Shown: positions 11,053 to 25,825, counted from the first letter of the stretch. The stretch is DNA of 40,881 nucleotides from an uncultured bacterium (GCA_965369655.1 CBDUQR010000026.1:1-40881); one strand, 5' to 3'. Translations and numbers: made by a program. Notes: generated from the letters alone by a model not told the origin.

Positions 11053-11127
11053 TTATCCAGACCGCACCCAGGAGCTTGTTGAATAAACCTGCTGACCTGG
11101 ATTCCTGATCGACTATCGTATGATGCC

Positions 11128-11320
11128 GTCATTGCAAGCGACCGGAGGGAGCGCGGCAATCTCATGCTGTCTTGTGGCCGGCAGACCTCCCGGCAAGTCC
11201 TGATCCTCGAAGGGTCTGCCGCATTCCAACGATTGCCGACCCGATGGGGCAGACGAGGACGTCTGCCGCCCACAGGAACAAGAACTGAAATCACCACGTC
11301 GCTGACACTCCTCGTGATGA
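11128..11320. repeat. Nested REP-like composite: outer GTCATTGC-family pair, inner GTGG-family doublet, 21-bp insert
   Basis: GTCATTGCAAGC…GCGGCAATCTC (11128-11163) and a degenerate inverse at 11287-11320 enclose 11173-11274, which is closely similar to 17280-17362 apart from a 21-bp insert. Confidence 0.8.
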
Positions 11321-11364
11321 TGGGTCCGCAAACAATGCCTGTCACGGGGTTTTTCAGAAAGCCC

Positions 11365-12033
11365 CTAATAGATGGCAAAATTCACTCCGGAAATGAATCC
11401 CCACTGGTCGTCAATCTGGAACTCGCCATAGAACTGAGTGCGGTTCGAGTGGGCATATTGAACGCCGAGATTAAGACCAATATCGAAGTCGGTATCTTTG
11501 AATCCTGCGTCGTTCAGACGCTCCGCGCGGAAATTGAGCCGACCATACGGAGTCAGATTCACGTTAGGTGACACCTTGATCGGATGTGAGCCGATTATGC
11601 CGGAGCCGAGAACCCAAACTTCCGCATCCGGCCCAACATCGTAGTAATCTGCGAATAGGCTCAGAGCCATGTCGGGCATGACCCAGTCTTCCCGCTTCAG
11701 AAAATGGCTTTTCACCGACAGGCTGATCATGAAGTGAGGATCGTCGCCGCGTTCGGTATCGTCGAGACCCATTTTCACTTCGAATTCAGCATCGGACACG
11801 AGTCCCATCCTGAAGTGTCCGAAAACGGCGTTTGCATCATCGAAAAAGCCGACGTTTCCGCCGACGTCGATAGCGCCCTGCGGAACGACTTCCGCAGTCG
11901 AAAGCTGGCCGAACAGCCCGCCATCTCTGAGACCGCCGTCGCTGCTGTAGCTCAAAGCGTTATCCGATTGACCGGCAAGCACAGGCATAGTCATAAGCAG
12001 CATGCAAAAAACAACAAACACGAACTTTTTCAC
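11365..12033 (-). CDS. Hypothetical outer-membrane beta-barrel protein
   Basis: GTG start with GGGAGG upstream; signal peptide (…PVLA/G); alternating amphipathic strands; aromatic C-terminus (GVNFAIY). Confidence 0.7.
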   Translation of the reverse strand: MKKFVFVVFCMLLMTMPVLAGQSDNALSYSSDGGLRDGGLFGQLSTAEVVPQGAIDVGGNVGFFDDANAVFGHFRMGLVSDAEFEVKMGLDDTERGDDPHFMISLSVKSHFLKREDWVMPDMALSLFADYYDVGPDAEVWVLGSGIIGSHPIKVSPNVNLTPYGRLNFRAERLNDAGFKDTDFDIGLNLGVQYAHSNRTQFYGEFQIDDQWGFISGVNFAIY

Positions 12034-12461
12034 TTCACCCTCCCACAACAACTCAATTATTCTCTCGACAATCCTCTCTGTTGCTCTTACGCAGTAACCT
12101 GTCGCAACGATTCAGAAAAAATCCAGCGGCTCGTATTGATCCAGGTGAGCATCCAGAGCCCGGGAAGAAACACAGCATCCTTCCATCAGGCCGAATCTGC
12201 GCAGACTATCGTCCGGTGTCAACAAATATTTGAGATGCGCCGAAACGACCGGTCTCCCCATCTCCGGTCTTTTTTCGCCGAAACGGGAATTGCACTTGGC
12301 GATAGTAAGGCATGTATCCAAAAAATATTCCAAAAGTGATGTTCTCATATTGATGAATGTGTTATGATTATGGTGATTTGGTGTCGGGAGTATGTTGGAG
12401 GTCAACTTGTGAAACACCGCCGATTCGGTGCTTTGAACATGGATAGGCGTAGGAACAATTC

Positions 12462-13991
12462 ATGACCGTTTCTGCCGATCAATTAGTCATCAGCGTTGAA
12501 GCTCTACGAACGAGGTTTATTGGTGGATATTGCCGTAAAGCTCGTTCCGAAAATGGCCAGTTTTTGACTCCGGCACGCATCGCTGAGTTCATGGCATCAT
12601 TGTTCCGCAACCAAGTCGAAAAGGTACGGATTCTTGATCCTGGAGCGGGAGCTGGCGCCCTTTTTGCGGCATGCGTTGCAGATTTGTGCAATCGGAAAGA
12701 GCGCCCCCAATCAATTTCGGTGGTTGCCTATGAAATTGACGATGGACTTATCTCATGCTTAACAGAAACAATGGAACTTTGTCGTGATGTGTGTCGCAAA
12801 ACTGGAGTTCGGTTCGACGGTAGTGTATTGCACGAAGATTTCATACCTGCGGCTCTTGAACAGACAGACCATAGCCTTTTTGCCCCAGAGCAACGGACGT
12901 TTACGCATGTGATATTGAACCCTCCATACAAGAAGATCAACGGACGATCTCCCACTCGGAAATCCTTGGACGCAGCGGGAATGGGAACTTCAAATCTTTA
13001 CACGGCATTTGTCTGGCTTGCGGCGCGAATGTTGGAGCCAGACGGGGAGTTGGTCGCAATTACACCACGTAGCTTCTGCAACGGGCCGTATTTTCGGCGG
13101 TTTCGAAAGGCGCTTCTCGAATTAACGAGCCTAAGGCACATTCATGTTTTCGACTCACGCAAAAAGGCGTTCTCGGACGATGGCGTTTTGCAGGAGAACG
13201 TGATCTTCCGTGCAATTCGTAATCGTCCCAATCCTGCGAAGGTGACTATTTCTTCCACAAGTGGGGCTGAGTTTAGCGCTCTCAAGACGAGGACAGTACC
13301 ATATGAACGCGTCATTCAGCCTGATGATCCAGATATGTTTATCCATCTGGTGCAGGACGAAAAGGATGACTATGTCATAGAACGCATGAGGACCCTCAGT
13401 GCCAGCTTAGAGGTTTTAGGGTTAGATGTATCGACAGGACGAGTTGTCGATTTCCGGGCAAAGAGATTCCTGCAGCAGGAGCCGAATGAGAAAACTGTGC
13501 CGCTAATCTATCCGTGCCACCTGCGGAACGGCTTTGTGGACTGGCCGAAATTGGATGGGAGGAAACCTAATGCCATTTTGTCCAGTTCGGAGACCGCTGA
13601 TTTGATGGTATCTTCGGGATACTATGTGTTAACAAAACGGTTTACTTCCAAGGAAGAGCGACGTCGTGTCGTGGCAAGCGTCTTCGATCCTCAAAGGTGT
13701 GAATCTCCCCTTATCGGGTTTGAAAATCACCTGAACTACTACCATGCGAAAGGCGCAGGAATATCGGCAAACTTGGCGAAAGGCTTGGCGCTATTCCTGA
13801 ACTCCACGTTGTTTGATGCATTTTTTCGCTTGTTCAGCGGCCATACCCAGGTTAATGCAACTGATCTTAGGAAAATGCGGTATCCATCGCGCGAAGAACT
13901 GTTGCGATTAGGTGCACTCGTAGAAGAACAAATGCCAGAGCAAGAAATTCTTGACGAGATTGTGGAAAAGGAAATCAGCTTCAGTGCGTAG
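12462..13991 (+). CDS. Type II N6-adenine DNA methyltransferase, BsuBI/PstI (Eco57I-domain) family
   Basis: GQFLTP, ILDPGAGAG, ILNPPY, NLYTAF, ITPRSFCNGPYF, GFENHLN and SGHTQVNATDL motifs. Confidence 0.92.
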   Translation: MTVSADQLVISVEALRTRFIGGYCRKARSENGQFLTPARIAEFMASLFRNQVEKVRILDPGAGAGALFAACVADLCNRKERPQSISVVAYEIDDGLISCLTETMELCRDVCRKTGVRFDGSVLHEDFIPAALEQTDHSLFAPEQRTFTHVILNPPYKKINGRSPTRKSLDAAGMGTSNLYTAFVWLAARMLEPDGELVAITPRSFCNGPYFRRFRKALLELTSLRHIHVFDSRKKAFSDDGVLQENVIFRAIRNRPNPAKVTISSTSGAEFSALKTRTVPYERVIQPDDPDMFIHLVQDEKDDYVIERMRTLSASLEVLGLDVSTGRVVDFRAKRFLQQEPNEKTVPLIYPCHLRNGFVDWPKLDGRKPNAILSSSETADLMVSSGYYVLTKRFTSKEERRRVVASVFDPQRCESPLIGFENHLNYYHAKGAGISANLAKGLALFLNSTLFDAFFRLFSGHTQVNATDLRKMRYPSREELLRLGALVEEQMPEQEILDEIVEKEISFSA

Positions 13992-14949
13992 GAAAGAACA
14001 ACAGGCAAGAATCCAGAAGAAGATAGAGCAGGTACTGGAAGTCCTGAAGGCGCTTGGATTACCAAGGCAACAACAGAATGAGCGTTCAGCGTTGACATTG
14101 CTTTCGCTGCTCGGCCTCAAGCCAGATGATGAATGGGCCGATGCCCAAGCCCCTCTTATGGGCATCACTCCAATGATGGAATTCTTTGCGGAACATTACG
14201 GAAAACGGTACAAACCAAATACGCGTGAAACCGTTCGCCGCCAAACCGTCCACCAGTTCTTGCAGGCCGCGTTGATCGTATTGAATCCAGATGAACCCGC
14301 CAGGTCGACAAACAGCCCCAATGCGGTATATCAAATCGAGTCTTCCGCAGTGAAGTTGCTCAGAAGATTCGAGAAGCCCGACTGGCCGCGAAAGTTGGAG
14401 GAGTACCTGCGTAGCGTTCCATCGTTGAAGGAGCAATATGCGCAAGAACGCGAGATGCTGCGCATTCCTGTACAATTGGCAAATGGGGGAGAAATCCACC
14501 TGTCGCCGGGCGGTCAAAACGTGCTGGTCAAGAAAATCATCGACGACTTCTGTGCCCTTTTCACACCAGGAGCTGAAACCATCTATGTGGGCGACACACA
14601 GGACAAATGGGCTTACTTCAATAGGTCAGCCCTGGAATCATTGGGCGTAGAGATCGAAGAGCACGGGAAAATGCCTGATGTAGTTATTCATCATGGGCAA
14701 AAGGACTGGCTTGTCCTCGTGGAAGCGGTAACCAGTCATGGCCCTGTAAATCCCAAGCGACATCAGGAACTGAAGGAACTGTTCGGCGGATCGAAAGTTG
14801 GGCTTGTCTATGTAACTGCCTTCCTGGACCGGCGAACCATGGTCAGGTATTTGGATGATATAGCGTGGGAAACTGAAGTGTGGGTCGCCGAATCGCCGAC
14901 ACACTTGATTCATTTCAATGGGGAGCGATTCCTTGGACCATATGGTTAA
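13951..14949 (+). CDS. BsuBI/PstI-family type II restriction endonuclease
   Basis: YKPNTRETVRRQT, LSPGGQN, GKMPDVV…EAVTSHGP, IAWETEVW…HLIHFNGERFLGPY; overlaps the MTase end. True start may be GTG 13984. Confidence 0.92.
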   Translation: MTRLWKRKSASVRRKEQQARIQKKIEQVLEVLKALGLPRQQQNERSALTLLSLLGLKPDDEWADAQAPLMGITPMMEFFAEHYGKRYKPNTRETVRRQTVHQFLQAALIVLNPDEPARSTNSPNAVYQIESSAVKLLRRFEKPDWPRKLEEYLRSVPSLKEQYAQEREMLRIPVQLANGGEIHLSPGGQNVLVKKIIDDFCALFTPGAETIYVGDTQDKWAYFNRSALESLGVEIEEHGKMPDVVIHHGQKDWLVLVEAVTSHGPVNPKRHQELKELFGGSKVGLVYVTAFLDRRTMVRYLDDIAWETEVWVAESPTHLIHFNGERFLGPYG

Positions 14950-15141
14950 TTGATTGCATCAAGACCGTCCTTCGCTACGCTCTTTCCGATTTACCAATTC
15001 ATCTGATAGTCCTTCATCTCTTTCTCGCCACTTATTCCCCAACGGACCTTCTGACTACCGGGTCCCCATCTCACACCTTTTTTCTGTTGACCTTTGGCGA
15101 TCTCAGTGTTAATTGCCCAAGTCAATTTACCGGGAGGCCTG

Positions 15142-16237
15142 ATGGCTCAACAGACTGAATACGATCTCACACTTTTCGAACAAAAGCTCGAACAGATTCG
15201 AGGTTATCTTTGACGTCGAAAATCGCCTCACTTCAATAGCGAAACTCGAAAAAGAGACGACGGCTGAGGGCTTCTGGAACAACACGGCCAAAGCACAGGC
15301 TGTGCTCAAGCGACTTAAACTCGATAGAAATATCCTTAAAGAACTTGACGAGTTGAAGAAGGAGTTCGACGATCTCGAAGTCCTCGATGAATTCTGTCGG
15401 GAAGACGACACGGGCGACACTCAGAAGGAATTCGAGGAGACCGCCGATTCGTTCGCCCGGAGACTCGCCAGCTTCGAACTGAAAACATACCTCTCGGAAC
15501 CCGAGGATCCGAACAATGCATTGCTAACGATCCATCCCGGCGCCGGCGGTACTGAATCGATGGACTGGGCAGCCATGCTCCTGAGAATGTACCTCAGGTG
15601 GGCCGAGCAGAACGGCTACGAAACCGATACGATCGATTTTCAGTCAGGCGACGAAGCGGGAGTGAAATCGGCCACAGTCGAAATCAAGGGTGACTACGCC
15701 TATGGATTCCTTAAGTGCGAGTCGGGCGTGCACAGACTCGTGCGGATTTCGCCGTTCGACGCCAACAGCCGGAGACATACATCATTCTGCTCCATCTTCG
15801 TCTACCCGGAAGTGGAAGGCGATATCGACATCGAGATAAAGAGCGATGATCTCAGGATCGATACATATCGCGCGTCAGGCGCAGGTGGCCAGCATGTGAA
15901 CAAAGTCTCGTCGGCGGTGCGGATCACGCACAACCCGACCGGAGTCACCGTGCAGTGTCAGTCTGAGCGTTCGCAACTGAAGAATCGTGAATCGGCAATG
16001 AAAGTACTCAAGGCTCGCCTGTATCAACTCGAGAAGGAAAAAGAAGAAAAGAGAAAGCAAAAGCTCGAATCAACCAAGATGAAAATCGAGTGGGGGTCCC
16101 AGATCAGATCGTACGTTTTTCACCCGTACAACATGGTCAAAGATCACCGCACGGATTATGAGACGTCGAATGTCGACAAGGTAATGGACGGAGATATTTC
16201 CGATTTCATAAACGCATATCTTGCTTCAAACAAATAG
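15142..16237 (+). CDS. prfB: Peptide chain release factor 2 with programmed +1 frameshift (about 364 aa)
   Basis: GGGAGG then ATG 15142; 23 codons to CTT-TGA-C (15208-15214); the +1 frame joins the 15302 ORF, which has SPF and GAGGQ motifs. Confidence 0.96.
15199..15214 (+). promoter_or_regulatory. prfB autoregulatory frameshift site
   Basis: CGAGGT-TAT-CTT-TGA-C: internal SD-like sequence plus the canonical shift site. Confidence 0.92.
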
Positions 16238-16249
16238 TTGGAGGAACAG

Positions 16250-17245
16250 ATGAGTATTTTGACGAAAGTGCAGGATAAGGCCAAGACACTGAAGAGACAT
16301 GTTGTCCTGCCGGAAGGCGAAGAACCCCGTGTCGTGCAGGCGGCTAAGAAGATACTGAGCAATGAAATCGCAAAGGTCACGCTCCTTGGAAACGAGTCTA
16401 AGATCGCCGAGCTCGCCAAAGAGCATGGCCTGAATCTCCGCAAAGTCCAGGTGATCGATCCTGCGACCTCGCCGAAGCTGTATGAATATGCACAGGAGTT
16501 CAAGGAGATGCGCAAGGCCAAAGGCATCACCGACGAGCAGGCGGAAGCGACGATGCAGCAAGTTCTGTATTATGGAGCGATGATGGTCAGGCATGGTGAG
16601 GTTGACGGCTCTGTCGCCGGTTCTGTTCATACCACCGGCGACGTACTGCGCGCCGGCATACAGGTGATCGGTCTCGCCGAAGGTATCAGGTCGGTCTCGT
16701 CCTGCTTCATGATGGTCGTGCCGGAGTTCATGGGCGAGTACAACAAGGTGTTCCTGTTTGCCGACGGCGCGGTCATTCCCAACCCGTCAGCCGAACAGCT
16801 CGGATCGGTCGCTGTGTCGACCGCCCGCACTATGAAAGTCCTCGTCGGAGAAGAGCCGAGAGTCGCGATGCTCTCGTTCTCGACAAAAGGCTCGGCGGAG
16901 CACGCCGACGTCGAGAAGGTGCGCAAAGCTCTGGCAATAGCGAAGACGATCGATCCCGACTTGATAATAGACGGTGAGCTTCAGGTCGACGCCGCCATCA
17001 TTCCTAAGATTGCGGACTCGAAGGCGCCGGGGTCACCGGTCGAGGGCAAGGCAAACGTGCTCGTGTTTCCGGACCTCGACGCTGGAAATATCGCGTACAA
17101 GATCGTCCAGCGGCTGGCCAAAGCCGAAGCAATCGGACCGATCATCCAGGGTCTGGCGAAACCGGCCAACGATCTGTCGCGCGGCTGCTCGCCGAACGAC
17201 ATCGTGAATGTAACAGCAATCGCTATGATTCTCAGCACCTTGTAG
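16250..17245 (+). CDS. pta: Phosphate acetyltransferase
   Basis: VVLPEGEEPR, RVAMLSFSTKGSA, DGELQVDAA, FPDLDAGNIAYK and NDLSRGC motifs; GGAGG before ATG 16250. Confidence 0.95.
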   Translation: MSILTKVQDKAKTLKRHVVLPEGEEPRVVQAAKKILSNEIAKVTLLGNESKIAELAKEHGLNLRKVQVIDPATSPKLYEYAQEFKEMRKAKGITDEQAEATMQQVLYYGAMMVRHGEVDGSVAGSVHTTGDVLRAGIQVIGLAEGIRSVSSCFMMVVPEFMGEYNKVFLFADGAVIPNPSAEQLGSVAVSTARTMKVLVGEEPRVAMLSFSTKGSAEHADVEKVRKALAIAKTIDPDLIIDGELQVDAAIIPKIADSKAPGSPVEGKANVLVFPDLDAGNIAYKIVQRLAKAEAIGPIIQGLAKPANDLSRGCSPNDIVNVTAIAMILSTL

Positions 17246-17279
17246 AAAGGACGTTTTGAATAACGTGGTAAGCTCATAC

Positions 17280-17362
17280 TGTGGCCGGCAGACCTCCCGG
17301 TCTGCCGCATTGCAGCGGTGCCGACCCGACGACGGGGCAGACGAGGACGTCTGCCGCCCACA
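17280..17362. repeat. REP doublet (GTGG/GTAG type), insert-free allele
   Basis: TGTGGCCGGCAGAC-CTCCCG-GTCTGCC…GGCAGAC-GAGGAC-GTCTGCCGCCCACA: two inverted hairpins with GTGG feet. Confidence 0.85.
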
Positions 17363-17444
17363 GGACGGCGGGATCAATTCGATGACTGCATTGTTACAGG
17401 ACGGAAGAGTCTGCGCGAAGCCGCATATCGGAGGATAAAAAGAA

Positions 17445-17735
17445 ATGCCAACTTATGAATATCGCTGCAAGACATGCGGGTATGAGTTCGAAGAGTTTCA
17501 GAGCATAGTTGACCCGCCGTTGACCAGGTGCCCCAAGTGCAGCGGATTGATCGAACGCTTGATATCCGGAGGCGGAGGATTGCTCTTCAAGGGAACCGGC
17601 TTCTACCTGACCGATTACCGATCGGAAAGCTACAAGAAAGCGGCTGCCGCCGACAGTGCGAGTGGATCAACATCAAGCTCCTCGAAATCGTCCGGATCGA
17701 AATCAACCTCCAAAGGAAACTCCAAGTCCGGATGA
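17445..17735 (+). CDS. FmdB-family zinc ribbon protein
   Basis: MPTYEYRCKTCG…CPKC…FKGTGFYLTDY followed by a Ser/Lys-rich tail. Confidence 0.93.
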   Translation: MPTYEYRCKTCGYEFEEFQSIVDPPLTRCPKCSGLIERLISGGGGLLFKGTGFYLTDYRSESYKKAAAADSASGSTSSSSKSSGSKSTSKGNSKSG

Positions 17736-17752
17736 GATAAACTGGATCGGGT

Positions 17753-17890
17753 ATGAAGGCTGTCGACCTACTCAAGGGGGAATTCGCCGACCTCGTCGAT
17801 GAAGTCGGCGATAACACAATCAAGCTGTTCAGGCTGATCAGGAAATCGTTTGATCCACACGGCATTTTTAACCCGGGCAAGACATTCTGA
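17753..17890 (+). pseudogene. 45-aa remnant carrying the C-terminus of an FAD-linked oxidase (GlcD/Dld family)
   Basis: Translates MKAVDLLKGEFADLVDEVGDNTIKLFRLIRKSFDPHGIFNPGKTF*; DPxGIxNPGK is the family's C-terminal signature. Too short for the ORF track. Confidence 0.65.
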
Positions 17891-18168
17891 GGAGAAATCA
17901 GCAAGCCAGTTCAGTGGATGGAGAAGGCGGTCGCATTAGCGGCCGCCTGAGGATTTGAGAAGATAATAGTTCGAAGCAGATGAATAATGCTCTCGTCTTG
18001 TCTTACGCGCATACGTAAGAAAGGTTCGATGTTTTTGAACTTCACTGCCGAATTCTCAGCGTTGCATAGAAATGTCCGGCGCTCTTTTTTTTCTTGAATA
18101 AGTTTCATCCATTGCAGTAATTTCAATGAAGTTCGAGTCTGGGCTCTTGGAGACGTGCGAGGAAAGTC

Positions 18169-18699
18169 ATGGATACAATACGATCGGGAGTAGTCTTCAG
18201 CGAGGAGCAGCGATTCACGCAGGTCTGGCTATGGATTCTTATCATTGCCTCATCGCTGATGATGATCGGGATTTTCGGCTACGGCATGTTCAAGCAATTC
18301 GTCATTGGGGAACCGTGGGGCGACCACCCGATGTCCGACACCGCGCTCGCGATCATGGGACCGATCTATGTGCTGTTCGGGATCGCACTGTATGTATCAT
18401 TCCGAACCACCCGACTCGTCACGCAGGTGCGGCACGACGCGCTGTACATCAGGTTCTACCCCTTCCATATTCGCTTCAAGCGATTCCGCTACGATGAGAT
18501 TGAGAAGTACGAGATTGTCGATTACAGGCCGATTCGCGATTACGGCGGGTGGGGAATCAAGAAAGGTCTGAAGGGCTGGGCATACAATGTCAGTGGCAGC
18601 AGGGGCGTCCTGTTGACGTTTCACACCGGCAAGAAACTCCTCATCGGCTCACAGAAACCACACGAACTGGTCGGTGCAATCGATTCGGTGGAGAGATAG
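18169..18699 (+). CDS. DUF6141-like membrane protein
   Basis: FSEEQRFTQ, two TM helices, YRPIRDYGGWGI and LLIGSQKP motifs. Confidence 0.8.
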   Translation: MDTIRSGVVFSEEQRFTQVWLWILIIASSLMMIGIFGYGMFKQFVIGEPWGDHPMSDTALAIMGPIYVLFGIALYVSFRTTRLVTQVRHDALYIRFYPFHIRFKRFRYDEIEKYEIVDYRPIRDYGGWGIKKGLKGWAYNVSGSRGVLLTFHTGKKLLIGSQKPHELVGAIDSVER

Positions 18700-18711
18700 A
18701 ATTCGCAGCGT

Positions 18712-18739
18712 CGTCATTCCCGCGAAGGCGGGAATCCAG
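18712..18739 (+). repeat. dRS3-like REP, left arm of a perfect 28-bp inverted repeat
   Basis: CGTCATTCCCGCGAAGGCGGGAATCCAG, exact reverse complement of 19703-19730. Confidence 0.92.
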
Positions 18740-18768
18740 TTGACTGTTAACCCTGATACGTCTATTAT
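18740..18768 (+). promoter_or_regulatory. Candidate sigma70 promoter for the AbiJ-like gene
   Basis: TTGACT (18740-18745), 17 bp, TATTAT (18763-18768), beginning at the first base after the repeat. Confidence 0.55.
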
Positions 18769-18806
18769 TAGGCACGGATTATGTTATTGGATCGGGGAAA
18801 AGACAA

Positions 18807-19667
18807 ATGAAATTCTCAGAGCGCATGGGATATGTCTCACCGAGGACAGAACTACAGATTGAGTCGATGGACAATGACATGCGAGTCGCACTATGGAATT
18901 GTTACTGGGAAAGATTTGAATCCCTTTTCAGGTTTTCTGAATATAATCTTGAATGTTTTAAGTACTCTAGAGGTTTGTGGAAAAACATCCTTATTCAACC
19001 ACTTAATGAAATGCCTGAGGAACCATACAATATAGCAACCTATCTTTCGGATTGGTATTTTGACTGCATGTGGTGGGAGGTTTACGATTTTCTTGAGTTC
19101 TCAGATAATTTCCTTTGTACTTCAGCCTACACCGCTGACGATTTCAGAATCCAGTGTAATGAAGCACTCCAGAAGTATGCTTCTGGATATAGATTTGTGG
19201 GAGAAATCATTGCCCCAATCACGAATGATTCGGAGATTACAAGCATTGAGGAGACACTTGATCTGTCAATCAAATCAGGGCTCGAAGGTGTAAGGAATCA
19301 TATACAGTCAGCTCTTTCAATGCTCTCTGACCGTAAGGAACCTGACTACAGAAATTCGATCAAAGAATCGATCTCGGCAGTCGAGAGCGTTTGTAGGACA
19401 ATCACAGGGAACCCGAAAGCAACTCTCGGAGATGCTATCAAGTTGCTGAAAAAGAAAATTAATATCCACCCTGCACTTGAGAAAGGATTCTCGAGCATCT
19501 ACGGATACGCAAGCGACGGAGATGGCATCAGACACGCAATGACTGAGAAGAACGATTGCGACTTTGAGGATGCCAAATACATGCTGGTTTCATGCTCTGC
19601 TTTTGTGAATTATCTCATAATGAAAGCTCAGAAGGCTGGCATCGACTTATCATCAACGAAGAAGTAG
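18807..19667 (+). CDS. AbiJ N-terminal domain 4 (AbiJ_NTD4)-type protein with HEPN-like C-terminus; putative anti-phage protein
   Basis: MKFSERMGY…LQIESM…LWN, WWEVYDFLEF, PDYRNSIKESISAVE and HPAL…YGYASD..GIRHA motifs; visibly more AT-rich than its neighbours. Confidence 0.75.
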   Translation: MKFSERMGYVSPRTELQIESMDNDMRVALWNCYWERFESLFRFSEYNLECFKYSRGLWKNILIQPLNEMPEEPYNIATYLSDWYFDCMWWEVYDFLEFSDNFLCTSAYTADDFRIQCNEALQKYASGYRFVGEIIAPITNDSEITSIEETLDLSIKSGLEGVRNHIQSALSMLSDRKEPDYRNSIKESISAVESVCRTITGNPKATLGDAIKLLKKKINIHPALEKGFSSIYGYASDGDGIRHAMTEKNDCDFEDAKYMLVSCSAFVNYLIMKAQKAGIDLSSTKK

Positions 19668-19702
19668 AACTGCATTCATACATCGCACATATAAGAAAGG
19701 TT

Positions 19703-19730
19703 CTGGATTCCCGCCTTCGCGGGAATGACG
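19703..19730 (-). repeat. dRS3-like REP, right arm of a perfect 28-bp inverted repeat
   Basis: CTGGATTCCCGCCTTCGCGGGAATGACG. Confidence 0.92.
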
Positions 19731-19847
19731 TGGTCAACTGTCCATCTCAACAAACAACAAAATCGGTTGACGATCTATTCCATAGCTGCTTTCTTTCACC
19801 CCGTAGCCCTGTGGCTCTGATTGAACACTTCAGAACTGGAGCAGGAA

Positions 19848-21071
19848 ATGGGAAATGATTCAATGATAAAACCGGCGAAGAGAACCGAGCATATCGAGTA
19901 TGCCGTAAGAGACATAGTAGTGCTCGCGAAACAGGTCGCCATGACCGGTAAGGAAATGTTGTATCTGAATATCGGCGACCCGAACCAGTTCGATTTCGAG
20001 ACTCCTCCGCACATGGTTGCGGCGATACAGAAGGCTATCGCTGACAACTTCAATGGTTATGCGCCATCGTCCGGCATACCTGAAGCGATCGAATCAATCG
20101 AACGCGAGGCAAAGCGCAAGGGCATAGATAACATTCAGGATATATTCGTCACGACAGGTGCGAGCGAGGCTATCGAAATCTGTCTCACCGCGCTCGCTGA
20201 CGAGGGCGATAATGTCCTGACGCCATCGCCCGGCTATCCGCTCTATCAGGCGGTTCTCGCAAAGTTGCAAGTTATCGAGAATGCGTATTACCTCGATGAG
20301 GATAATGGCTGGCAACCGGATCTCGAAGACATCAGGAGCAAGATCAACGAGCGCACACGCGCGATCGTGCTGATCAATCCGAACAATCCGACAGGGTCGG
20401 TCTGTTCTGAAAATACCATGCGAGGGATTATCGATCTCGCCAGCAAACACAACCTCGTGATCTTCTGCGATGAAATATATGACAAGCTGATTCTCGACGA
20501 CAAGCCACACATCTCGCTCGCCTCGCTCGACAAAAATGTCCCTGTGGTGACATTCAACGGTCTGTCAAAATCATATCTCGGACCGGGTCTGCGCATCGGC
20601 TGGGGAATAGTCAGCGGCGATCACTCGCGGCTGAAAGACTACATCGAAGGCATCAACAAGATTCTGCGCGCGCGGCTCTGCGCAAATCACCCGATTCAAT
20701 ATACGGTCAAACCTGCGCTCGAAGGCGATCAGTCGCATCTGAAAGTGGTGCGTGATAAGCTCGCGAGACGACGCGATATAACGACCGAAATGCTCAACGC
20801 GATTGACGGCATCACATGCGTGCGTCCCGAAGGCGCGTTTTACGCGTTCCCGCGGCTCCACATTGATGGCGATGACAAGCATTTCGTCGCTGAACTAATC
20901 AAGGCGACCGGCGTGGTGGTCGTGCATGGCAGCGGTTTTGGGCAGGTACCCGGAACACAGCATTTCCGAGTCGTATTCCTGCCGACTGAGGATGTGCTGG
21001 AGAAAGCCTACAACAACATCGCAACGTTCTTTGCAGAATACGTGAAGAAGCACTCACAGGTGACGGCGTAG
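19848..21071 (+). CDS. Class I/II PLP aminotransferase (AlaA-like)
   Basis: LNIGDP, INPNNPTG, DEIYDK, FNGLSKSY…GLRIGW, PEGAFYAFP and HFRVVFLP motifs. Confidence 0.9.
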   Translation: MGNDSMIKPAKRTEHIEYAVRDIVVLAKQVAMTGKEMLYLNIGDPNQFDFETPPHMVAAIQKAIADNFNGYAPSSGIPEAIESIEREAKRKGIDNIQDIFVTTGASEAIEICLTALADEGDNVLTPSPGYPLYQAVLAKLQVIENAYYLDEDNGWQPDLEDIRSKINERTRAIVLINPNNPTGSVCSENTMRGIIDLASKHNLVIFCDEIYDKLILDDKPHISLASLDKNVPVVTFNGLSKSYLGPGLRIGWGIVSGDHSRLKDYIEGINKILRARLCANHPIQYTVKPALEGDQSHLKVVRDKLARRRDITTEMLNAIDGITCVRPEGAFYAFPRLHIDGDDKHFVAELIKATGVVVVHGSGFGQVPGTQHFRVVFLPTEDVLEKAYNNIATFFAEYVKKHSQVTA

Positions 21072-21123
21072 GCACAAGATCGCTGCGCATCGCCTCTACC
21101 AAAGCAACAGACATAGGTCAACC

Positions 21124-21250
21124 GTGCCCAGGCAGATGTCCACATCTGCCGATATCAACGCTGGTTGGGGCAGACCCCTCGAAGCTCAGGACTTGCGAGG
21201 ACGTCTGCCGCCCACAATACTTGATACTGAGATCGCCACGTCGCTACGCT
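21124..21250. repeat. REP doublet with a 21-bp insert, followed by a truncated GTCATTGC-family arm
   Basis: GGCAGATG-TCCA-CATCTGCC; GGGGCAGA[21 bp]CGAGGACGTCTGCCGCCCACA; GAGATCGCCACGTCGCT resembles 11287-11303. Confidence 0.8.
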
Positions 21251-21335
21251 GTTATGTAAAAGGTCAAGCCGTTTCCCGACATTTCAATGTTGCGTCGGGT
21301 CTTGGTCGTGCGGTGCGCGAGTGTGACCTGACGCT

Positions 21336-23168
21336 TTAAGCGGATTCTCCGAAGTATGCCTTGATTCGCTCGGCGTCTTTCGTGCCGATTCCGGGGAGCT
21401 TGCAGATTTGCTCGACCGTTACTTCGCGGACTCGTTTCACGCTCTTGAAATGTTTCAGAAGCTTCTTCGCTTTTGTCGGGCCGATGCCTTCGATTTTCTC
21501 GAGTTCTGTCACAACAGTCCGTTTGCTGCGCAGTTTCCTGTGATATTCAATCGCGAACCTGTGCGCTTCATTGCGAAGCGTCTGGAGCAGCCGCAGACTC
21601 GGCGATGATTTGGAGATGAGCAGAGTATCTTTCTTTCCGGGCTGAACGATCTCTTCGAGTCTTTTCGCAAGCCCGATGACATTGGCATCGACATTCAGAT
21701 CGGCCAACGCTTCGAGCGCAGCGGAGAGCTGCCCCTTTCCGCCATCGATAACGAGAAGGTTGGGACCTTCCCTCCCCTCCGTGTTCAGGCGTGAATAGTA
21801 TCGACCAACAACTTCTCTCACCGATGCGAAGTCATCCTGCCCGACGACAGACTTGATCTTGAAATGACGGTATTCGCTCTTCTTCGGTTTGCCGTTCGAG
21901 AAATATACCAGCGATCCGACCTTGTCGGTCCCGCCGAGATTCGATATGTCGATACACGCCATAGTCATCGGCGTCTTTTCGAGTCTCAATTCCTGCTGTA
22001 GTTTCAGCAGTGTTGCAGGTATGCGTTTCTTGTATCCCTGTTTCTGTACGAGAAGTTCATCGAGAACAAGTTTGGCGTTCGACGCCGCCATCCCGACCAG
22101 CTTGAGCTTCTCCCCTCGTTGCGGCACGACCAGTTTCAACTTCTTTCCGAGCCGTTTTGAGAGCCACTTCTCGATCAACTCGCTGTCCTCGATTACGTCC
22201 GAGAGATATATCTCCTCAGGAAGATTGGGCGCGTGCATGTAGTATTGCTTGACAAATGTCTCCGCCAGTTCGCTGCCGGTGGTCTGCGGTTCGCATTTGA
22301 GATAGAAATGCTGTCGTCCGATGAGCATGCCCTCGCGCACCTGCAGCACTACGCATGCCGCATCCGACGCTGCGACTGCAAACGCAATCACATCGCGGTC
22401 GACACATTTCTCTGCCGCAACTTTCTGCTTCTGACGAATGCTCTCGATCGCACGTATCTGATCGCGAACATCCGCCGCAGCCTCGAATTCCATCTGCTCA
22501 GACAGCTCCTGCATCGTATCATTGAGTCTGCCGATCAGTTCCTCTGACTGTCCTGCGAAGTAGAGACAAACGCCCTCGACACGTTTGCGGTAATCCTGTA
22601 CCGTCACGAGGTTCTCGCACGGACCGGGGCACCGTTTGATCCTGTACTCCAGACAGACTTTCTGCTCCTTGCCCTTCGGGTGCGGAATGACAAGATTACA
22701 GGTCCGTATCCTGAAGAGCTTCGTCAGGAATCTGACAGTCTGCCGCATCTTCTTTGCGTTCGTGAACGGTCCAAAATATCTGGCTTTATCTTTCTGAAGC
22801 CGTCGCACAATCAGGATTCGCGGGTATGGTTCGTTTGTCGTGACCTTGACATAGGGAAATCGCTTGTCGTCCTTCAAATTCACATTATAGCGAGGCTTGT
22901 GCTGCTTGATCAGATTGCTTTCGAGAATCATGGCTTCCATCTCGGTGTCGGTCACGAGAACTTCGAAGTCATGAATCTTCGAAACCAGCGCCAGGGTCTT
23001 CGGATCGAACTTATGCCCACGCTGGAAATAGGTCCGCACCCGATTGTTGAGATTCTTAGCCTTGCCGATGTAGATGATCCTGCCCAACCTGTCCTTCATC
23101 AGGTAGACGCCGGGACTCTTCGGTAGGTTTGGAAGCTTATCGACGTACGGCTTGTCTGTCATTTTCAA
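21336..23168 (-). CDS. uvrC: Excinuclease ABC subunit C
   Basis: PGVYLM…IYIGKAKNL..RV GIY-YIG domain, UVR domain, DISN, LLVIDGGKGQL and HhH motifs; start at 23168 or 23162. Confidence 0.97.
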   Translation of the reverse strand: MKMTDKPYVDKLPNLPKSPGVYLMKDRLGRIIYIGKAKNLNNRVRTYFQRGHKFDPKTLALVSKIHDFEVLVTDTEMEAMILESNLIKQHKPRYNVNLKDDKRFPYVKVTTNEPYPRILIVRRLQKDKARYFGPFTNAKKMRQTVRFLTKLFRIRTCNLVIPHPKGKEQKVCLEYRIKRCPGPCENLVTVQDYRKRVEGVCLYFAGQSEELIGRLNDTMQELSEQMEFEAAADVRDQIRAIESIRQKQKVAAEKCVDRDVIAFAVAASDAACVVLQVREGMLIGRQHFYLKCEPQTTGSELAETFVKQYYMHAPNLPEEIYLSDVIEDSELIEKWLSKRLGKKLKLVVPQRGEKLKLVGMAASNAKLVLDELLVQKQGYKKRIPATLLKLQQELRLEKTPMTMACIDISNLGGTDKVGSLVYFSNGKPKKSEYRHFKIKSVVGQDDFASVREVVGRYYSRLNTEGREGPNLLVIDGGKGQLSAALEALADLNVDANVIGLAKRLEEIVQPGKKDTLLISKSSPSLRLLQTLRNEAHRFAIEYHRKLRSKRTVVTELEKIEGIGPTKAKKLLKHFKSVKRVREVTVEQICKLPGIGTKDAERIKAYFGESA

Positions 23169-23857
23169 TCAGACTTGAACGCCAGAGAATATGCGATATA
23201 CGCCGCGAGTGCAAAGAGCACCGTCGGCACCCAGTAGATGAACATCAACATCCATCGCGCCCCACCCGACATGACAAGCATATCATCGAGGAGAGCGGCG
23301 GAGGTCACACCGCATGCGTACATGATGAAGTAGTAGATCAATATCACGATACCGCCGATGAGAACAGCCCTGCGGTAATCGTTCGGAGAGTCTACGAGCT
23401 TATAGGTCATCGCAGTCACGAGAACATAGATAGCAATTGGATGACTGAGTATTGGCAGGCGGCAGTAGTTGAGTATAAGATTGACACTCTTGTTGTCCAT
23501 CAGGTTCGATTCAGGGGGGATCACAACATCGATCTTCACCACGGAGATAACAAACAACGCGGCAGATATCAGAAAGAAGATCGAAGCCGAGCCGAGGTTC
23601 GCCCTGAGCAGACGCCAGAGACCTAAACAGTTGACAGATCGCTGCCGAACCATTGCCAGCCAGAGCGCCCATGTCGAGGCTATGACGGATGAAACGAAAA
23701 GCCAGTCAAACAGAGCCGAACTGTCGGTGACGGCGAATGGAACTGTTACTGAAGGAGCAACATAGTACAATGCCCCAAAGAGAACGAGAACAGCGATGTA
23801 GCTGAATGCAATCAGTCCTTGTCCTCGACTGTCTCCCATGCTGCTCATACTATCCAA
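23165..23857 (-). CDS. Hypothetical multi-pass membrane protein
   Basis: About six hydrophobic segments; overlaps both neighbours in operon fashion. Confidence 0.7.
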   Translation of the reverse strand: MDSMSSMGDSRGQGLIAFSYIAVLVLFGALYYVAPSVTVPFAVTDSSALFDWLFVSSVIASTWALWLAMVRQRSVNCLGLWRLLRANLGSASIFFLISAALFVISVVKIDVVIPPESNLMDNKSVNLILNYCRLPILSHPIAIYVLVTAMTYKLVDSPNDYRRAVLIGGIVILIYYFIMYACGVTSAALLDDMLVMSGGARWMLMFIYWVPTVLFALAAYIAYSLAFKSD

Positions 23858-24368
23858 GCACCCGTCGTGCTCCGACGAACGATTTGCGGTAGTATTCTTC
23901 TTTCATGGATGAGATGACCACGCCGCGACTCTCGGAAGAATGCACGAATTTGTTATCGCCGATGTAAATCCCTACGTGAGATGCATGCTTGCCATTGAGC
24001 GAGAAGAAAACGAGATCGCCGTACATCACATCGCGGTAGCTGATGCGAGGAAGTCCGTTGAACAGTTTCTTCGCATTGGGCGGAAGATGCATGTTATCGT
24101 AGTCGCGATACACAGCATAGACCAGCCCTGAACAATCGATTCCAAGCTTGCCGAATCCGCCGCGCCTGTATGGCGTCCCAATATAGTTTTCGATGATGCT
24201 GCTGAGTCGATCCCTGTTAAGACCGGTCGGCTGGCTCCCGACGCCGTCGTTATCCGGTTGCCCGTAGCCGGTCTCCTCGATAGACGCAGGGCCCGGCGGC
24301 GCGGGCGAATACCTGACACTCGGCTGGCATGCCAGCAACAAAAGAATGAGCAGTGACGTCCACTTCAT
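23850..24368 (-). CDS. NlpC/P60 (C40) peptidoglycan endopeptidase lipoprotein
   Basis: Lipobox LLAC; YIGTPY..GG, GIDCSG, GDLVFF and HVGIY…FVHS motifs. Confidence 0.93.
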   Translation of the reverse strand: MKWTSLLILLLLACQPSVRYSPAPPGPASIEETGYGQPDNDGVGSQPTGLNRDRLSSIIENYIGTPYRRGGFGKLGIDCSGLVYAVYRDYDNMHLPPNAKKLFNGLPRISYRDVMYGDLVFFSLNGKHASHVGIYIGDNKFVHSSESRGVVISSMKEEYYRKSFVGARRVLG

Positions 24369-24441
24369 ACGACTGTCTCCTGATCATGAAATTAAGAGCG
24401 AGGTTCAGACTGCGCAACAAAAAAACTCAGGATGTGTAGTG

Positions 24442-25380
24442 TCACAGGCCGACGGACGGATACTCGATCTCGAATCTCCATCTGTAGTACTGTCTCGCCA
24501 GGACAAAGCCTATTGCGAGAAGCGCTATGTAGGCAGGCAGATAGATACAGGCAAACAGAGATAGTGCAAGGATCGCAATCTTCGTCGAGCGCACGATATC
24601 CTCCATCCGACTTGTCGTCAATGCGCGGATGAAAAACGGCAGCGATACGAGCCCCGCAATTAGATAAGCGTAGTCACCGCTCATCTGGGCGAGAATGACC
24701 GAGAGTACGACCAGAAACACCGATGCCTTCATGGTTGTCCTCGGTCCCCACATGACTCCGTGCGTGATTTTCCCGACAGCCTTATCCCCGTCCCTGTCCG
24801 GCAACGTTGTGTTGAGATAGATCGCGCCGACTCCGAACAGATACGGAAACGACTTGAGCGCGGTTTCGAGCGTGACGGCATCGACAATGGCCCAGCCAAT
24901 CATGAACGGAATCATCCCGTGACCGAAAGCGTTCGACCAATACCCGTGCGATGGTTTTCCCTTGAAATTTGTGATAGGATTTGAGTAGAGCAACCCGAGT
25001 ACGAATATGATCACGAAAAGTATGCCAATCTGCGTACTGAGATAGAACCCGCCTGCAAGTGCGATCGCATTCAGCAGAAATGTGCAGGCGTATGCCGAAG
25101 GAATTGAAATCATTCCCTCGGCGAGATAGAACAGCTTGTTGTTCTGTCGGTCGGACTCGATATCATGAATCTGGTTGAATGTATAGACCGCTCCGTAGAG
25201 ACATGTGGCAAACAGCATCAGCAGCCAGAAATCGGAACCGACGCCGGCGAGTCCGGTCGTCGCCAGTGGGGACGCGCCCTCGCGGACATCAGCCGCGCGC
25301 GCACCAAGAATCAAGATAGTCCAGACGGGTGGAAACAGCACTGGCCGGGTGAAAAATATGTAGTCAAGCGCTTTCTTCAT
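24442..25380 (-). CDS. UbiA-family prenyltransferase
   Basis: FFTRP, NQIHDIESD, YSNP…K and LPDRDGDK..GK.T motifs with many TM helices. Start moved to MKKALDY because the upstream extension is repeat sequence. Confidence 0.88.
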   Translation of the reverse strand: MKKALDYIFFTRPVLFPPVWTILILGARAADVREGASPLATTGLAGVGSDFWLLMLFATCLYGAVYTFNQIHDIESDRQNNKLFYLAEGMISIPSAYACTFLLNAIALAGGFYLSTQIGILFVIIFVLGLLYSNPITNFKGKPSHGYWSNAFGHGMIPFMIGWAIVDAVTLETALKSFPYLFGVGAIYLNTTLPDRDGDKAVGKITHGVMWGPRTTMKASVFLVVLSVILAQMSGDYAYLIAGLVSLPFFIRALTTSRMEDIVRSTKIAILALSLFACIYLPAYIALLAIGFVLARQYYRWRFEIEYPSVGL

Positions 25381-25391
25381 ATCGTGAGATT

Positions 25392-25475
25392 GTAGGTCAA
25401 GCGGTCTGCCCTGTCCTGAGCTTCGCGAAGGGCCGCTTGACATTGTGAGCGACAGATGTCCAAAGGCTGTCCCAC
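25392..25475. repeat. GTAG-type REP doublet with a 23-bp insert
   Basis: GTAGGTCAAGCGG…CCGCTTGACATTGTGA matches 25775-25808 except for an insert at 25410-25432; the right element ends TGTCCCAC. Confidence 0.8.
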
Positions 25476-25510
25476 AAGTTCTGATCGGTTCTGGCAGGAT
25501 GTGTGACTCC

Positions 25511-25606
25511 GTCACTCCCGCGAAGGCCCTTCGCTTTGCTCAGGATACCACGGGAGCCTATTTATCGATAACGCATTCAATAGATTCCCGCCTGCGCGGG
25601 AATGAC
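25511..25606. repeat. dRS3-like REP doublet without cargo gene; left arm carries a 24-bp insert
   Basis: GTCACTCCCGCGAAGG[24 bp]CGGGAGCCTA … TAGATTCCCGCCTGCGCGGGAATGAC. Confidence 0.85.
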
Positions 25607-25774
25607 CTCGCTTTCTTTCGCAAACGTGACCACCAACCTATCAGACCTTTTGTCTCCGCATCTGCCGCCACAGTGACAAATTGCTTAAGCAGATACTGAT
25701 TTATGACGTTGTTGTCAAGGTGAAATGTGGCAAGTGCCGCACAAGTAACTGTTTGACAACTCAAACGGCGATTT

Positions 25775-25825
25775 GTAGGTCAAGCGGCCTGTCCGCTTGA
25801 CATTGTGAACGCCAGAGGTTAGTAT
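25775..25825 (+). promoter_or_regulatory. GTAG-type REP hairpin whose 3' arm supplies the -35 box of a candidate promoter
   Basis: GTAGGTCAAGCGG-CCTGT-CCGCTTGAC; TTGACA 25797-25802, 17 bp, TAGTAT 25820-25825. Confidence 0.55.

Follow-up and report, generated by a model that had tools for sequence, protein, structure and literature searches.

Four inserts in palindromic repeats of one window

The window, by which we mean the whole 40,881-nt stretch of DNA analysed here (GCA_965369655.1, CBDUQR010000026.1:1-40881), comes from an uncultured bacterium whose genome is referred to below as G000. Within it lie four short inserts, each embedded in a REP-type hairpin, and all four were confirmed at the coordinates given by the initial annotation. 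The pattern TCCTGAKC-N2-5-CGARGGG has 4 matches in the window, compared with 0 in each of 100 shuffles. The inserts, their host hairpins and the related empty hairpins are as follows.

11180..11220, + strand: filled host hairpin of insert 1, a family A REP (GGCAGAC...GTCTGCC)
11194..11214, + strand: insert 1, linker CAAG followed by a 17-nt core at 11198-11214 (a TCCTGATC-CT-CGAAGGG variant), in the left REP of a doublet
11246..11274, + strand, and 17335-17362: empty alleles of the insert-2 host type
14969..14982, - strand: possible decayed copy, matching 14 nt from the centre of the 19-nt core and missing both outer arms
17287..17306, + strand: empty allele of the insert-1 host, GGCAGACCTCCCGGTCTGCC
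18708..18742, + strand: empty CGTC-tagged REP of family B, CGTC-ATTCCCGC-GAAG-GCGGGAAT-CCA, with an 8-bp stem from AT
21169..21209, - strand: host hairpin of insert 2, a family A REP and the right member of its doublet
21175..21195, - strand: insert 2, linker CAAG followed by a 17-nt core at 21175-21191, directly 5' of TCTGCC
25392..25441, + strand: host of insert 3, GTAG-GTCAAGCGG...CCGCTTGAC (GTAG tag as in the relevant passages of PMC3733652)
25410..25432, + strand: insert 3, linker CCTG followed by a 19-nt core at 25414-25432, located in a GTAG-tagged REP (family G), at the 3' end of its loop
25515..25607, - strand: copy of a composite repeat (~200-nt type), with a filled C hairpin at 25515-25556, a spacer and an empty B hairpin at 25588-25607
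25527..25550, - strand: insert 4, linker (G)TGGTA followed by a 19-nt core at 25527-45, within a family C hairpin of CGTC type (CTCCCG...CGGGAG)
25775-25801: empty allele of the insert-3 host

Taking insert 1 out of its host yields the empty allele GGCAGACCTCCGGGTCTGCC exactly, with 0 mismatches; folded as DNA, this host has a predicted energy of -8.6 kcal/mol when filled and -11.2 kcal/mol as the empty allele. Removal of insert 2 likewise gives GGCAGACGTCCTCGTCTGCC exactly (0 mismatches, with a junction ambiguous by 1 nt), and removal of insert 3 gives GGTCAAGCGG(C/T)CTGCCCGCTTGAC, with 1 mismatch. The initial annotation had named an empty allele in the window for every insert. Those for inserts 1 to 3 are real, whereas the hairpin proposed for insert 4, at 18712-18739, is a member of a sister family (ATTCCCG...CGGGAAT); the exact empty form of the insert-4 host CTCCCG...CGGGAG, CTCCCGCCTTCGCGGGAG, occurs elsewhere in the genome and is absent from the window. 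The composite repeat at 25515..25607 is in the state B-empty/C-filled. As had been described, TCTGCC directly follows both insert 1 and insert 2, which occupy opposite strands of the REP doublet. Judging from its sequence, the 14-nt stretch at 14969-14982 is probably a decayed copy of the element. Two runs that may themselves have been the source of the window have Logan contigs spanning insert 1 (10500-11272) and insert 2 (20595-21208), with 0 differences. The contigs of three metagenome runs contained no 21-24-nt polymorphism at the four sites, a comparison in which contigs cannot show absence.

The initial annotation treated the hosts as unrelated REP families and missed that they belong to two known superfamilies, the GTAG- and CGTC-tagged REPs. 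Host families E-I begin with GTAGGTC; a terminal GTAG is the tag of GTAG-tagged REPs in the relevant passages of Di Nocera et al. 2013 (PMC3733652). CGTC-1 REPs are characterized in the same passages by a CGTC tag, an 8-9-bp stem from AT, a 4-5-nt loop and a CCA tail, and the window sequence at 18708-18742 has the corresponding 8-bp AT stem, GAAG loop and CCA tail. Those passages also report that some REP families mix short loops with long self-complementary loops, and that REPs can be inserted within other palindromes (PMC3733652). The loop variants they describe lie within families, whereas here one discrete module is common to both superfamilies; a module in non-REP contexts, or in tandem or nested forms, is not described in the relevant passages of that paper.

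Architecture of the repeated unit

Each unit is an imperfect hairpin of 17-20 nt preceded by a linker of 4-5 nt that is mostly C-N-N-G, and the core pattern scanned across G000 is TCCTGAGC-N1-6-CGAAGGG. The mini-hairpin is built from an outer stem (T)CC/GG(G), a T-A pair and two tandem G.A mismatches (TGA/GAA), and is topped by a 2-bp GC stem with a 1-4-nt loop. Core positions 8/12 (n=122) are occupied by C-G in 80 copies, T-A in 19, T.G in 14 and other combinations in 9, counts that are not independent since the copies are related. A sister core, TCCCGAGC...CGAGGGG, differs by a double change from T-A to C-G. Nearest-neighbour folding found no added stability of the core over shuffled sequence, either as DNA (-0.5 to -1.5 kcal/mol, z +0.4 to +0.6) or as RNA (z -0.9 to +0.6). 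A search of the entire window against Rfam 15 at gathering score gave 0 matches, in a search where very short motifs may escape every model. When the literature was searched with an 11-nt core stretch, only unrelated primers came up.

One way to account for this structure is selection for function, with the core acting as a binding or processing site for a widespread protein, or as a structured RNA, that is retained at hairpin tips. Its strong conservation across phyla and the compensatory changes at paired positions would fit, and tandem G.A geometry is a common protein-recognition feature. We nevertheless consider a functional motif very improbable. In spacers between tandem genes the core strand runs along transcription 54 times and against it 52 times, copy number varies from 0 to 133 within one genus, the window holds no Rfam family at gathering score, and tandem and nested copies fit poorly with a single functional site. 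The element was also compared with MITEs, which would have TIRs, a fixed-length TSD and a length of 70-300 bp. This assignment fails: the unit is only 21-25 nt long, there are no terminal inverted repeats beyond the single hairpin, and the junction overlap of 0-2 nt is variable.

Copy number and precise filled and empty forms

At up to 1 mismatch the core occurs in 245 copies in G000, and at up to 2 mismatches in 321, compared with 36 in a reversed-genome control; exact copies number 137, and the exact-pattern comparison within the genus gives 133 matches versus 0 in the same-genus genome G001. Midpoints of 54 of the 245 copies fall in an ORF of at least 150 aa, although such ORFs make up 89% of the genome, and 19 of the 245 copies lie inside gene proxies. 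A flanking perfect stem of at least 6 bp is present at 141 of 242 copies (58%) versus 4.9% of 5000 random sites, which bears out the enrichment in hairpins anticipated by the initial annotation. Most copies in G000 are at or beside an apical loop, either in GTAG- and CGTC-tagged REP hairpins or in the composite MITE-like repeat, with an orientation that is fixed within each host family. Unclassified copies include further host families. We infer that G000 represents a lineage-specific burst of the element.

The earlier proposal that one element occupies several distinct repeat families also stands, with at least 12 families in which some hairpins are filled and others empty. When one 21-24-nt block is removed, an existing empty allele results exactly for 86 of the 114 filled copies in 12 families, and gap lengths within families are bimodal, being either 6-13 nt or 6-13 plus 21-24 nt. 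These observations show that the unit is gained or lost as one precise 21-25-nt block. Because the junction is ambiguous by 1-2 nt in most copies, there could still be a target duplication of 0-2 nt. Family A hairpins that are restored exactly match at least 5 different empty alleles, with the unit on either strand and always 5' of TCTGCC.

Composite-repeat sub-lineages with identical diagnostic flanks are found both filled and empty, or B-filled versus C-filled. None of the 41 composite repeats is filled at both B and C (Fisher p = 0.001). On the composite-repeat tree, the filled and empty states require 18 changes, compared with 19.6 on average after shuffling; counting well-supported branches of the host tree, only 2-3 changes per state are required. 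Such scattering of states, as well as the mutual exclusion of B- and C-filled forms and the failure of enzyme searches to find a candidate gene, could be expected if there were no dedicated mobility, and units were passed on by template switching or short-patch gene conversion among repeats, with ordinary horizontal transfer between genomes. We regard this as quite unlikely, since conversion requires common flanks and the host families share only a terminal G. Neither insertion into heptamer repeats nor an identical 20-nt core in unrelated contexts across many phyla would be explained by conversion.

Two further features, tandem arrays and self-nesting, had been missed by the initial annotation. 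Arrays of two units occur 17 times, of three units once and of four units twice; their units are non-identical, and in Methylotuvimicrobium buryatense the unit spacing is 24 nt. Cores lie within the loops of other cores at three loci (L060, L063 and L075). A few chimeras between left and right arms are located close to contig ends and may be assembly errors.

Some of the filled forms have a longer history. A genome of another genus, G005, carries the same filled family-A haplotypes, so that many filled forms are old and have propagated as units, and there may have been few independent events. Filled hairpins multiply as units, since each host family has its own apical loop in the core. In another genus of the same phylum, orthologous sites were found with filled and empty alleles, as the initial annotation had proposed for related genomes: two such pairs divide two species (G109 and G107), one being a 24-nt gap in a REP and the other a 25-nt gap in a core-like hairpin, both with conserved flanks. 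As far as the sequences tell, gain versus loss is polarised at no locus, and each pair would fit precise deletion equally.

This lack of polarity leaves room for the view that the long forms are ancestral. The mini-hairpin would then be a conserved module at the apex of an ancient REP superfamily in which compensatory change drove the basal stems apart. The short forms would be precise deletions, with slippage between the 1-2-nt repeats at the junctions, or excision of the hairpin as the DNA is replicated, as examples of how they could arise. The 1-2 nt of microhomology at the junctions, the sharing of filled forms by several genera, and the similar core and CTTGC-type pre-linker found on differing GTAG stems (G000 families E-I; G004) are all in line with such a history. 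We find both the ancestry and the deletion route unlikely, given that the same core occupies otherwise dissimilar hosts (family A, CGTC types, family L, tandem heptamers and other cores) and lies on either strand of the symmetric family A stem. The non-identical units of tandem arrays and the nesting of cores in cores likewise speak against it, as does G001, which has ~116 CGTC-type hairpins (233 strand-doubled matches) and 0 cores.

Distribution and possible routes of mobility

The element is specific neither to G000 nor to its phylum, and its core is spread over many phyla. It was found in 91 of 257 genomes of the phylum, with a control near zero, and the 20-mer core was present in at least 124 stretches of genome_contigs, compared with ~9 expected by chance (calculated for 596 Gb). 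Five named genomes have 5-43 core copies versus 0-1 in the control; the cultured methanotroph M. buryatense has 43, and one Nostoc and one Trichormus genome have 12 each. Viral contigs contain the core in 34 stretches. Outside G000, a flanking stem of at least 6 bp is present in only 23 of 128 copies, so hairpin targeting is strong in G000 and not universal. A strict tandem-heptamer context was seen for 3 of 128 genome copies (one in Nostoc) and 1 of 38 viral copies.

The initial annotation's connection of the element with a RAYT/HUH nuclease is not supported: Y1_Tnp genes neither adjoin cores nor track copy number. Such genes occur in 235 of the 257 phylum genomes regardless of core count, while G261 and G264, both of unknown completeness, have 12 and 10 cores and no Y1_Tnp match, and no Y1 accompanies the 6 cores of G152. 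The palindromes that border the four short Y1_Tnp genes of G000 are neither the motif nor its hosts, and the four Y1 loci of M. buryatense contain no core or core-like match. At a Y1 locus of Maribacter algicola, one core variant, CCCTGAGCTTGTCGAAGGG, lies ~1.1 kb from the Y1 gene; a Nostoc Y1 locus has no core. G000 has no reverse transcriptase. Among candidate enzymes, the most concrete is an HUH/Y1-type nuclease that would act via a small single-stranded circle, a possibility that is unproven and, in our view, doubtful.

Like the mini-element as interpreted here, IS200/IS605 elements insert in an orientation-specific manner 3' of a short target with no or minimal duplication, and depend on recognition of ssDNA hairpins. 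They pass through a circular ssDNA intermediate, carry two different subterminal hairpins and measure ~1 kb or more, with miniatures of at least 100 nt. The joint of their circle resembles the joint between tandem units of the mini-element, which in contrast has a single 17-20-nt hairpin and no associated tnpA that we could find.

Another likeness is offered by the small dispersed repeats (SDRs) of heterocyst-forming cyanobacteria, which Elhai et al. are said to have described in 2008 as units of 21-27 nt with a predicted hairpin backed by compensatory changes. They reportedly nest in one another and are embedded in tandem heptamers and mini-transposons; eight families are said to have been published, inferred to be mobile with no enzyme known. 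The mini-element shares with them its block length of 21-25 nt (21-24 nt in the 114 filled hairpins), the compensatory pairs at core positions 8/12, the nested copies at L060, L063 and L075, and some tandem-heptamer contexts, a likeness in general features. Unlike SDRs, it resides in a marine-sediment bacterium outside the cyanobacteria, where it is much more numerous and mostly located at REP tips, and we know of no report of SDRs in which the same 20-nt core recurs across many phyla and viral contigs.

Comparison can also be made with the REP/REPIN-RAYT system (Nunvar 2010). Like the elements treated in the relevant parts of Bertels and Rainey 2011 (PMC3116915), the mini-element is a short non-coding palindrome thought to be moved in trans on ssDNA without clear target duplication, and its host hairpins form doublets, as REPINs do. 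Unlike them, it flanks none of the Y1 genes examined, is about half the size of a REP and is common to many phyla instead of being lineage-specific.

We favour the interpretation, with a probability of roughly 0.6, that each insert is a copy of a non-autonomous, SDR-like insertional mini-element of very small size. With ~250 copies, mostly at palindrome tips, and a core present in many phyla, it looks to be among the smallest insertion elements known. The substrate for insertion would be single-stranded DNA, which exposes hairpin tips and slipped repeats, and an enzyme that recognizes the mini-hairpin could act in trans as the catalyst. In a candidate ssDNA circle, the closed junction would be GGG|CNNG-TCC, the joint seen between tandem units. 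A bolder proposal, which we put forward as speculative and rather unlikely, is that of a domain-wide, horizontally spreading 24-nt ssDNA dumbbell mini-circle (a CNNG-closed hairpin) that inserts into exposed DNA loops via an enzyme class not yet linked to it, with tandem arrays as its rolling-circle multimers. If true, such a mini-circle would be the smallest transposable unit known and a general shaper of REP/MITE architecture in bacteria and phages.

Precision and hosts of the block

The four inserts reported for this window by the initial annotation were seen in the sequence at the following positions.

11194-11214, forward strand: insert 1
21175-21195, reverse strand: insert 2
25410-25432, forward strand: insert 3
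25527-25550, reverse strand: insert 4

Within the window, the motif proposed there has exactly four matches, one at each insert; 100 shuffled versions gave none. Each unit comprises a linker of 4-5 nt followed by a core of 17 or 19 nt, of the form TCCTGAGC-loop-CGAAGGG; the window returned no Rfam match at the gathering score. Insert-free alleles had been named for all four host hairpins. For inserts 1-3 the window does hold the same hairpin without the unit. For insert 4 the proposed allele (18712-18739) falls in a sister family, ATTCCCG...CGGGAAT; the actual host is a CTCCCG...CGGGAG hairpin, and its exact empty form is present elsewhere in the genome.

The draft genome to which the window belongs as contig C26 (2.99 Mb, 100 contigs, 99.5% complete) contains 137 exact matches to the pattern, 245 core copies at up to one substitution and 321 at up to two, the last against 36 in a reversed-genome control. 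The predicted genome-wide enrichment in hairpins was borne out: a perfect flanking stem of at least 6 bp surrounds 141 of 242 copies, compared with 4.9% of 5000 random positions. Gene proxies contain just 19 of 245 copies, and long ORFs, which make up 89% of the genome, hold the midpoints of 54. In the spacers that separate co-directional genes, the core runs with transcription 54 times and against it 52 times, and thus gives no indication of an RNA role tied to one strand.

In every host family the distance between the hairpin arms is bimodal, being either 6-13 nt or the same plus 21-24 nt. Removing one contiguous block from singly filled hairpins yields an existing empty allele without mismatch in 86 of 114 cases, in 12 families, and across a dozen host families more than 100 filled hairpins have exact empty counterparts in this genome. 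The base directly 5' of the block is almost always G, frequently within C-Y-Y-G. Asymmetric host families each carry the block in one fixed orientation; in the symmetric family A it occurs on either strand, without exception 5' of TCTGCC. A precise, oriented block has been gained or lost in many unrelated contexts. Its junction slides by 1-2 nt in most copies (G, GC or GT); three family-A copies in which the host has an A beside TCTGCC show A at both junction bases, and two further copies have G at the left junction base and A at the right. The sliding junctions and their bases suggest that a target duplication of 0-2 nt is possible.

At least 12 hairpin families house copies, with further ones among the unclassified copies. 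Family A (GGCAGAC...GTCTGCC) makes up the doublets of the window. Families E-I start with GTAGGTC and finish with GAC on differing, compensating stems, and match the GTAG-tagged REPs described by Di Nocera et al. 2013 (PMC3733652). Families B, C, D, M and N share a CGTC or TGTC tag, an 8-bp stem starting with AT, a 4-nt loop and a CCA tail, features that section 6 of the same article gives for CGTC REPs. The B and C hairpins are two of the parts of a composite repeat, roughly 200 nt long, that has a degenerate A-type hairpin at its end. A further repeat family, ATCACCACGTCGCT...CTCGTGATGAT, lies at 11290-11325 and 21232-21255 of the window; copies of it on contigs C5, C13 and C25 also house the mini-element. 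The genome also has a second type of insert, a hairpin of 28-46 nt built on GTCGGTCGCCGATCCCGATCC with GATCCC repeats, which takes the place of the mini-element in its host families.

Composite repeat and sites of the second insert type
Window 25515-25625: composite repeat (B hairpin, C hairpin and degenerate A hairpin), 41 copies genome-wide
Contigs C61, C38 and C15: GTCGGTCGCCGATCCCGATCC-based insert in family L
Contig C3, 94251: GTCGGTCGCCGATCCCGATCC-based insert in family C
Contigs C9, C15 and C38: GTCGGTCGCCGATCCCGATCC-based insert in family N

Gain, loss and nesting of hairpins

Each host family has its own apical core loop (for instance ACA or AAA for B and C, CTG for E, AGA for D), which indicates that filled hairpins multiplied as units once filled. 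Despite this unit-wise spread, several observations point to repeated insertion or removal. The family-A hairpins with exact restoration correspond to at least five distinct empty alleles, and, within the composite repeat, sub-lineages whose diagnostic flanks are identical include both filled and empty members, or members filled at B and others filled at C. A host tree built with the inserts removed gave 18 changes among three states against a shuffled mean of 19.6, and its well-supported branches force just 2-3 changes per state; with 2 of 38 branches starred, this tree is too poorly resolved for event counting. Of the composite copies, 13 are empty at both hairpins, 12 are B-filled, 16 are C-filled and none of the 41 is filled at both (Fisher p = 0.001, for copies that are related and non-independent). 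That B and C are never both filled in one composite is a lead only.

The sites of the window itself offer no filled/empty comparison because the same-genus genome G001 lacks these REPs there: its spacer at insert 1 measures about 13 nt and contains no REP, and its spacer at insert 2, which has other REPs, is located at contig ends. Three marine-sediment runs carry the window as Logan contigs only; these are broken at repeats and are uninformative on polymorphism, and they list no 21-24-nt indel at the four sites. The syntenic G001 contig also lacks the gene pair found at 12462-14949 of the window, an Eco57I/N6-type methylase and a BsuBI/PstI-type endonuclease, and the flanking genes are nearly adjacent there.

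Comparison of filled and empty alleles across related genomes, as the initial annotation had suggested, yielded two clean cases in another genus of the phylum, g58. In a syntenic spacer that is 94% identical between G109 and G107, one A-type REP has no insert in G107 and a 24-nt block in G109, and a core-like hairpin that is plain in G107 holds a nested 25-nt block in G109. Both repeats are missing at this locus from the genomes G106 and G108. Each pair fits a loss of the block as well as a gain. Counted together with its flanking sequence, the A-type REP spans about 90 nt that G109 and G107 have and G106 and G108 lack (L237:11478-11610 against L242 and L240); in G109 the direct repeat ATAGATTT bounds this REP-bearing unit and may be its target duplication.

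A short loop caps the pairing that the core can form (CC/GG, then T-A, two G.A mismatches and GC/GC), an arrangement also returned by folding programs. Across 122 copies, positions 8 and 12 form C-G (80), T-A (19) or T.G (14) or are unpaired (9). Computed core energies are no better than those of shuffles, as DNA or RNA, so the claim of stability rests on covariation and not on energy. A hammerhead-like ribozyme or a kink-turn was dropped because the defining unpaired bases are missing, a by-eye judgement.

Among 296 clusters in the genome, 17 contain two units, one contains three and two contain four, and neighbouring units are non-identical. The four-unit arrays, on C71 (near 9000) and C77 (near 200), share their right flank and differ in left-arm family; both are near contig ends, and an assembly join is possible. 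Hairpins with left and right arms of different families were mostly classification artefacts, with a few real ones near contig ends. In two loci from other genomes of the phylum (L060 and L063) a core lies within the loop of another core. The CGTC-type REPs of G107 and G109 hold a sister core, TCCCGAGC...CGAGGGG (for example G109:C9:272632-272676), which differs from the mini-element by a compensatory double change of T-A to C-G. Family-A REPs of G002, a genome of a related genus with no mini-element copies, contain another nested hairpin, ATCCCG...CGGGAT (for example C5:54272-54313). Together, the nested core loops, the sister core and the G002 hairpin indicate that a hairpin-in-hairpin architecture is general in this group. 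At L058 (G124:C8:101300-102200) a 61-nt unit that includes the 20-nt core is present in six head-to-tail copies; a CRISPR array was rejected because the "spacers" are identical and the rest of the unit is nearly so, as in a tandem repeat.

Distribution of the core

At least one exact match occurs in 91 of 257 genomes of the phylum (genomes at least 80% complete), with a near-zero reversed control. The window's genome is the phylum maximum with 133 exact-pattern matches in this survey, and several other lineages have 13-38. G001 (94% complete) has no copy of the exact pattern, despite 233 strand-doubled matches to the CGTC-type hairpin pattern. Genus g64 shows a similar contrast: G124, G125, G126, G127 and G129 carry 11-38 copies, whereas G122, G123 and G128 carry none.

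In a scan of one genome per species, the commonest 20-mer was found in at least 124 stretches, against about 9 chance matches calculated for 596 Gb; it is also present in 34 stretches of viral contigs. The matches listed include Proteobacteria, Acidobacteria, Chloroflexi, Bacteroidota, Verrucomicrobia, Planctomycetes, the candidate phyla radiation, Nostoc, Trichormus and others, and among them 33 of 128 have GCCTG as their 5' linker and 17 of 128 have GTTTA. Whole-genome counts reached 43 in Methylotuvimicrobium buryatense 5G, 12 each in one Nostoc and one Trichormus genome, 10 in a MAG of the Alphaproteobacteria and 5 in Maribacter algicola, with controls of 0-1; some copy pairs in these genomes are spaced 24 nt apart. 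Contexts are more varied among the matches listed from outside the window's genome: a stem of at least 6 bp flanks 23 of 128, 3 of 128 lie in strict heptamer tandem repeats and 1 of 128 is nested by the strict test.

Candidate mechanism and significance

A trans-acting enzyme would act on single-stranded DNA, possibly through a closed single-stranded circle of one unit whose joint would read GGG-CNNG-TCC. This is the joint seen between tandem units, a match that makes an IS200/IS605-like circle a concrete and testable idea, though the intermediate is a guess by analogy. The proposed link to RAYT genes found no support: the four short Y1 genes of the genome are flanked by other palindromes, and adjacency and correlation were negative or uninformative. 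Y1 is almost universal across the phylum, two carrier genomes have no Y1 match, and the Y1 loci of M. buryatense contain no core. The fifth Y1_Tnp match in the window's genome is a domain of a 1067-aa methylase-like protein (contig C23, L202:2915-6118, reverse strand), where it stands with N6_Mtase and a Type_ISP_C specificity domain; from its domain content this would be an unusual restriction-modification-like enzyme fused to an HUH domain. The 99.5% complete genome has no RVT_1 match, which argues against a retro mechanism and makes an RNA-mediated route unlikely there.

To our knowledge, the movement of repeats of 20-odd bases has been unsolved since 2008, when Elhai and colleagues reportedly described small dispersed repeats in cyanobacteria. 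Those repeats (Elhai et al. 2008) are the closest described likeness to the mini-element. Also close are the palindrome-nested REPs and the short-loop/long-loop variants noted in Di Nocera et al. 2013 (PMC3733652). Our literature search found no description of this core, which the tables of Elhai et al. 2008 may already list; what is new is its range of hosts, the number of copies in the window's genome and its identity across phyla.

REPs serve in strain typing and can influence the stability of mRNA. The units described here break assemblies, give spurious ORFs and reshape REPs. With its many filled and empty hairpins and a copy-free relative in the same genus, this Zixibacteria genome is an unusually rich natural experiment, and because the core also occurs on viral contigs and, at 43 copies, in a cultured methanotroph that is amenable to genetics, its mechanism can be tested at the bench.
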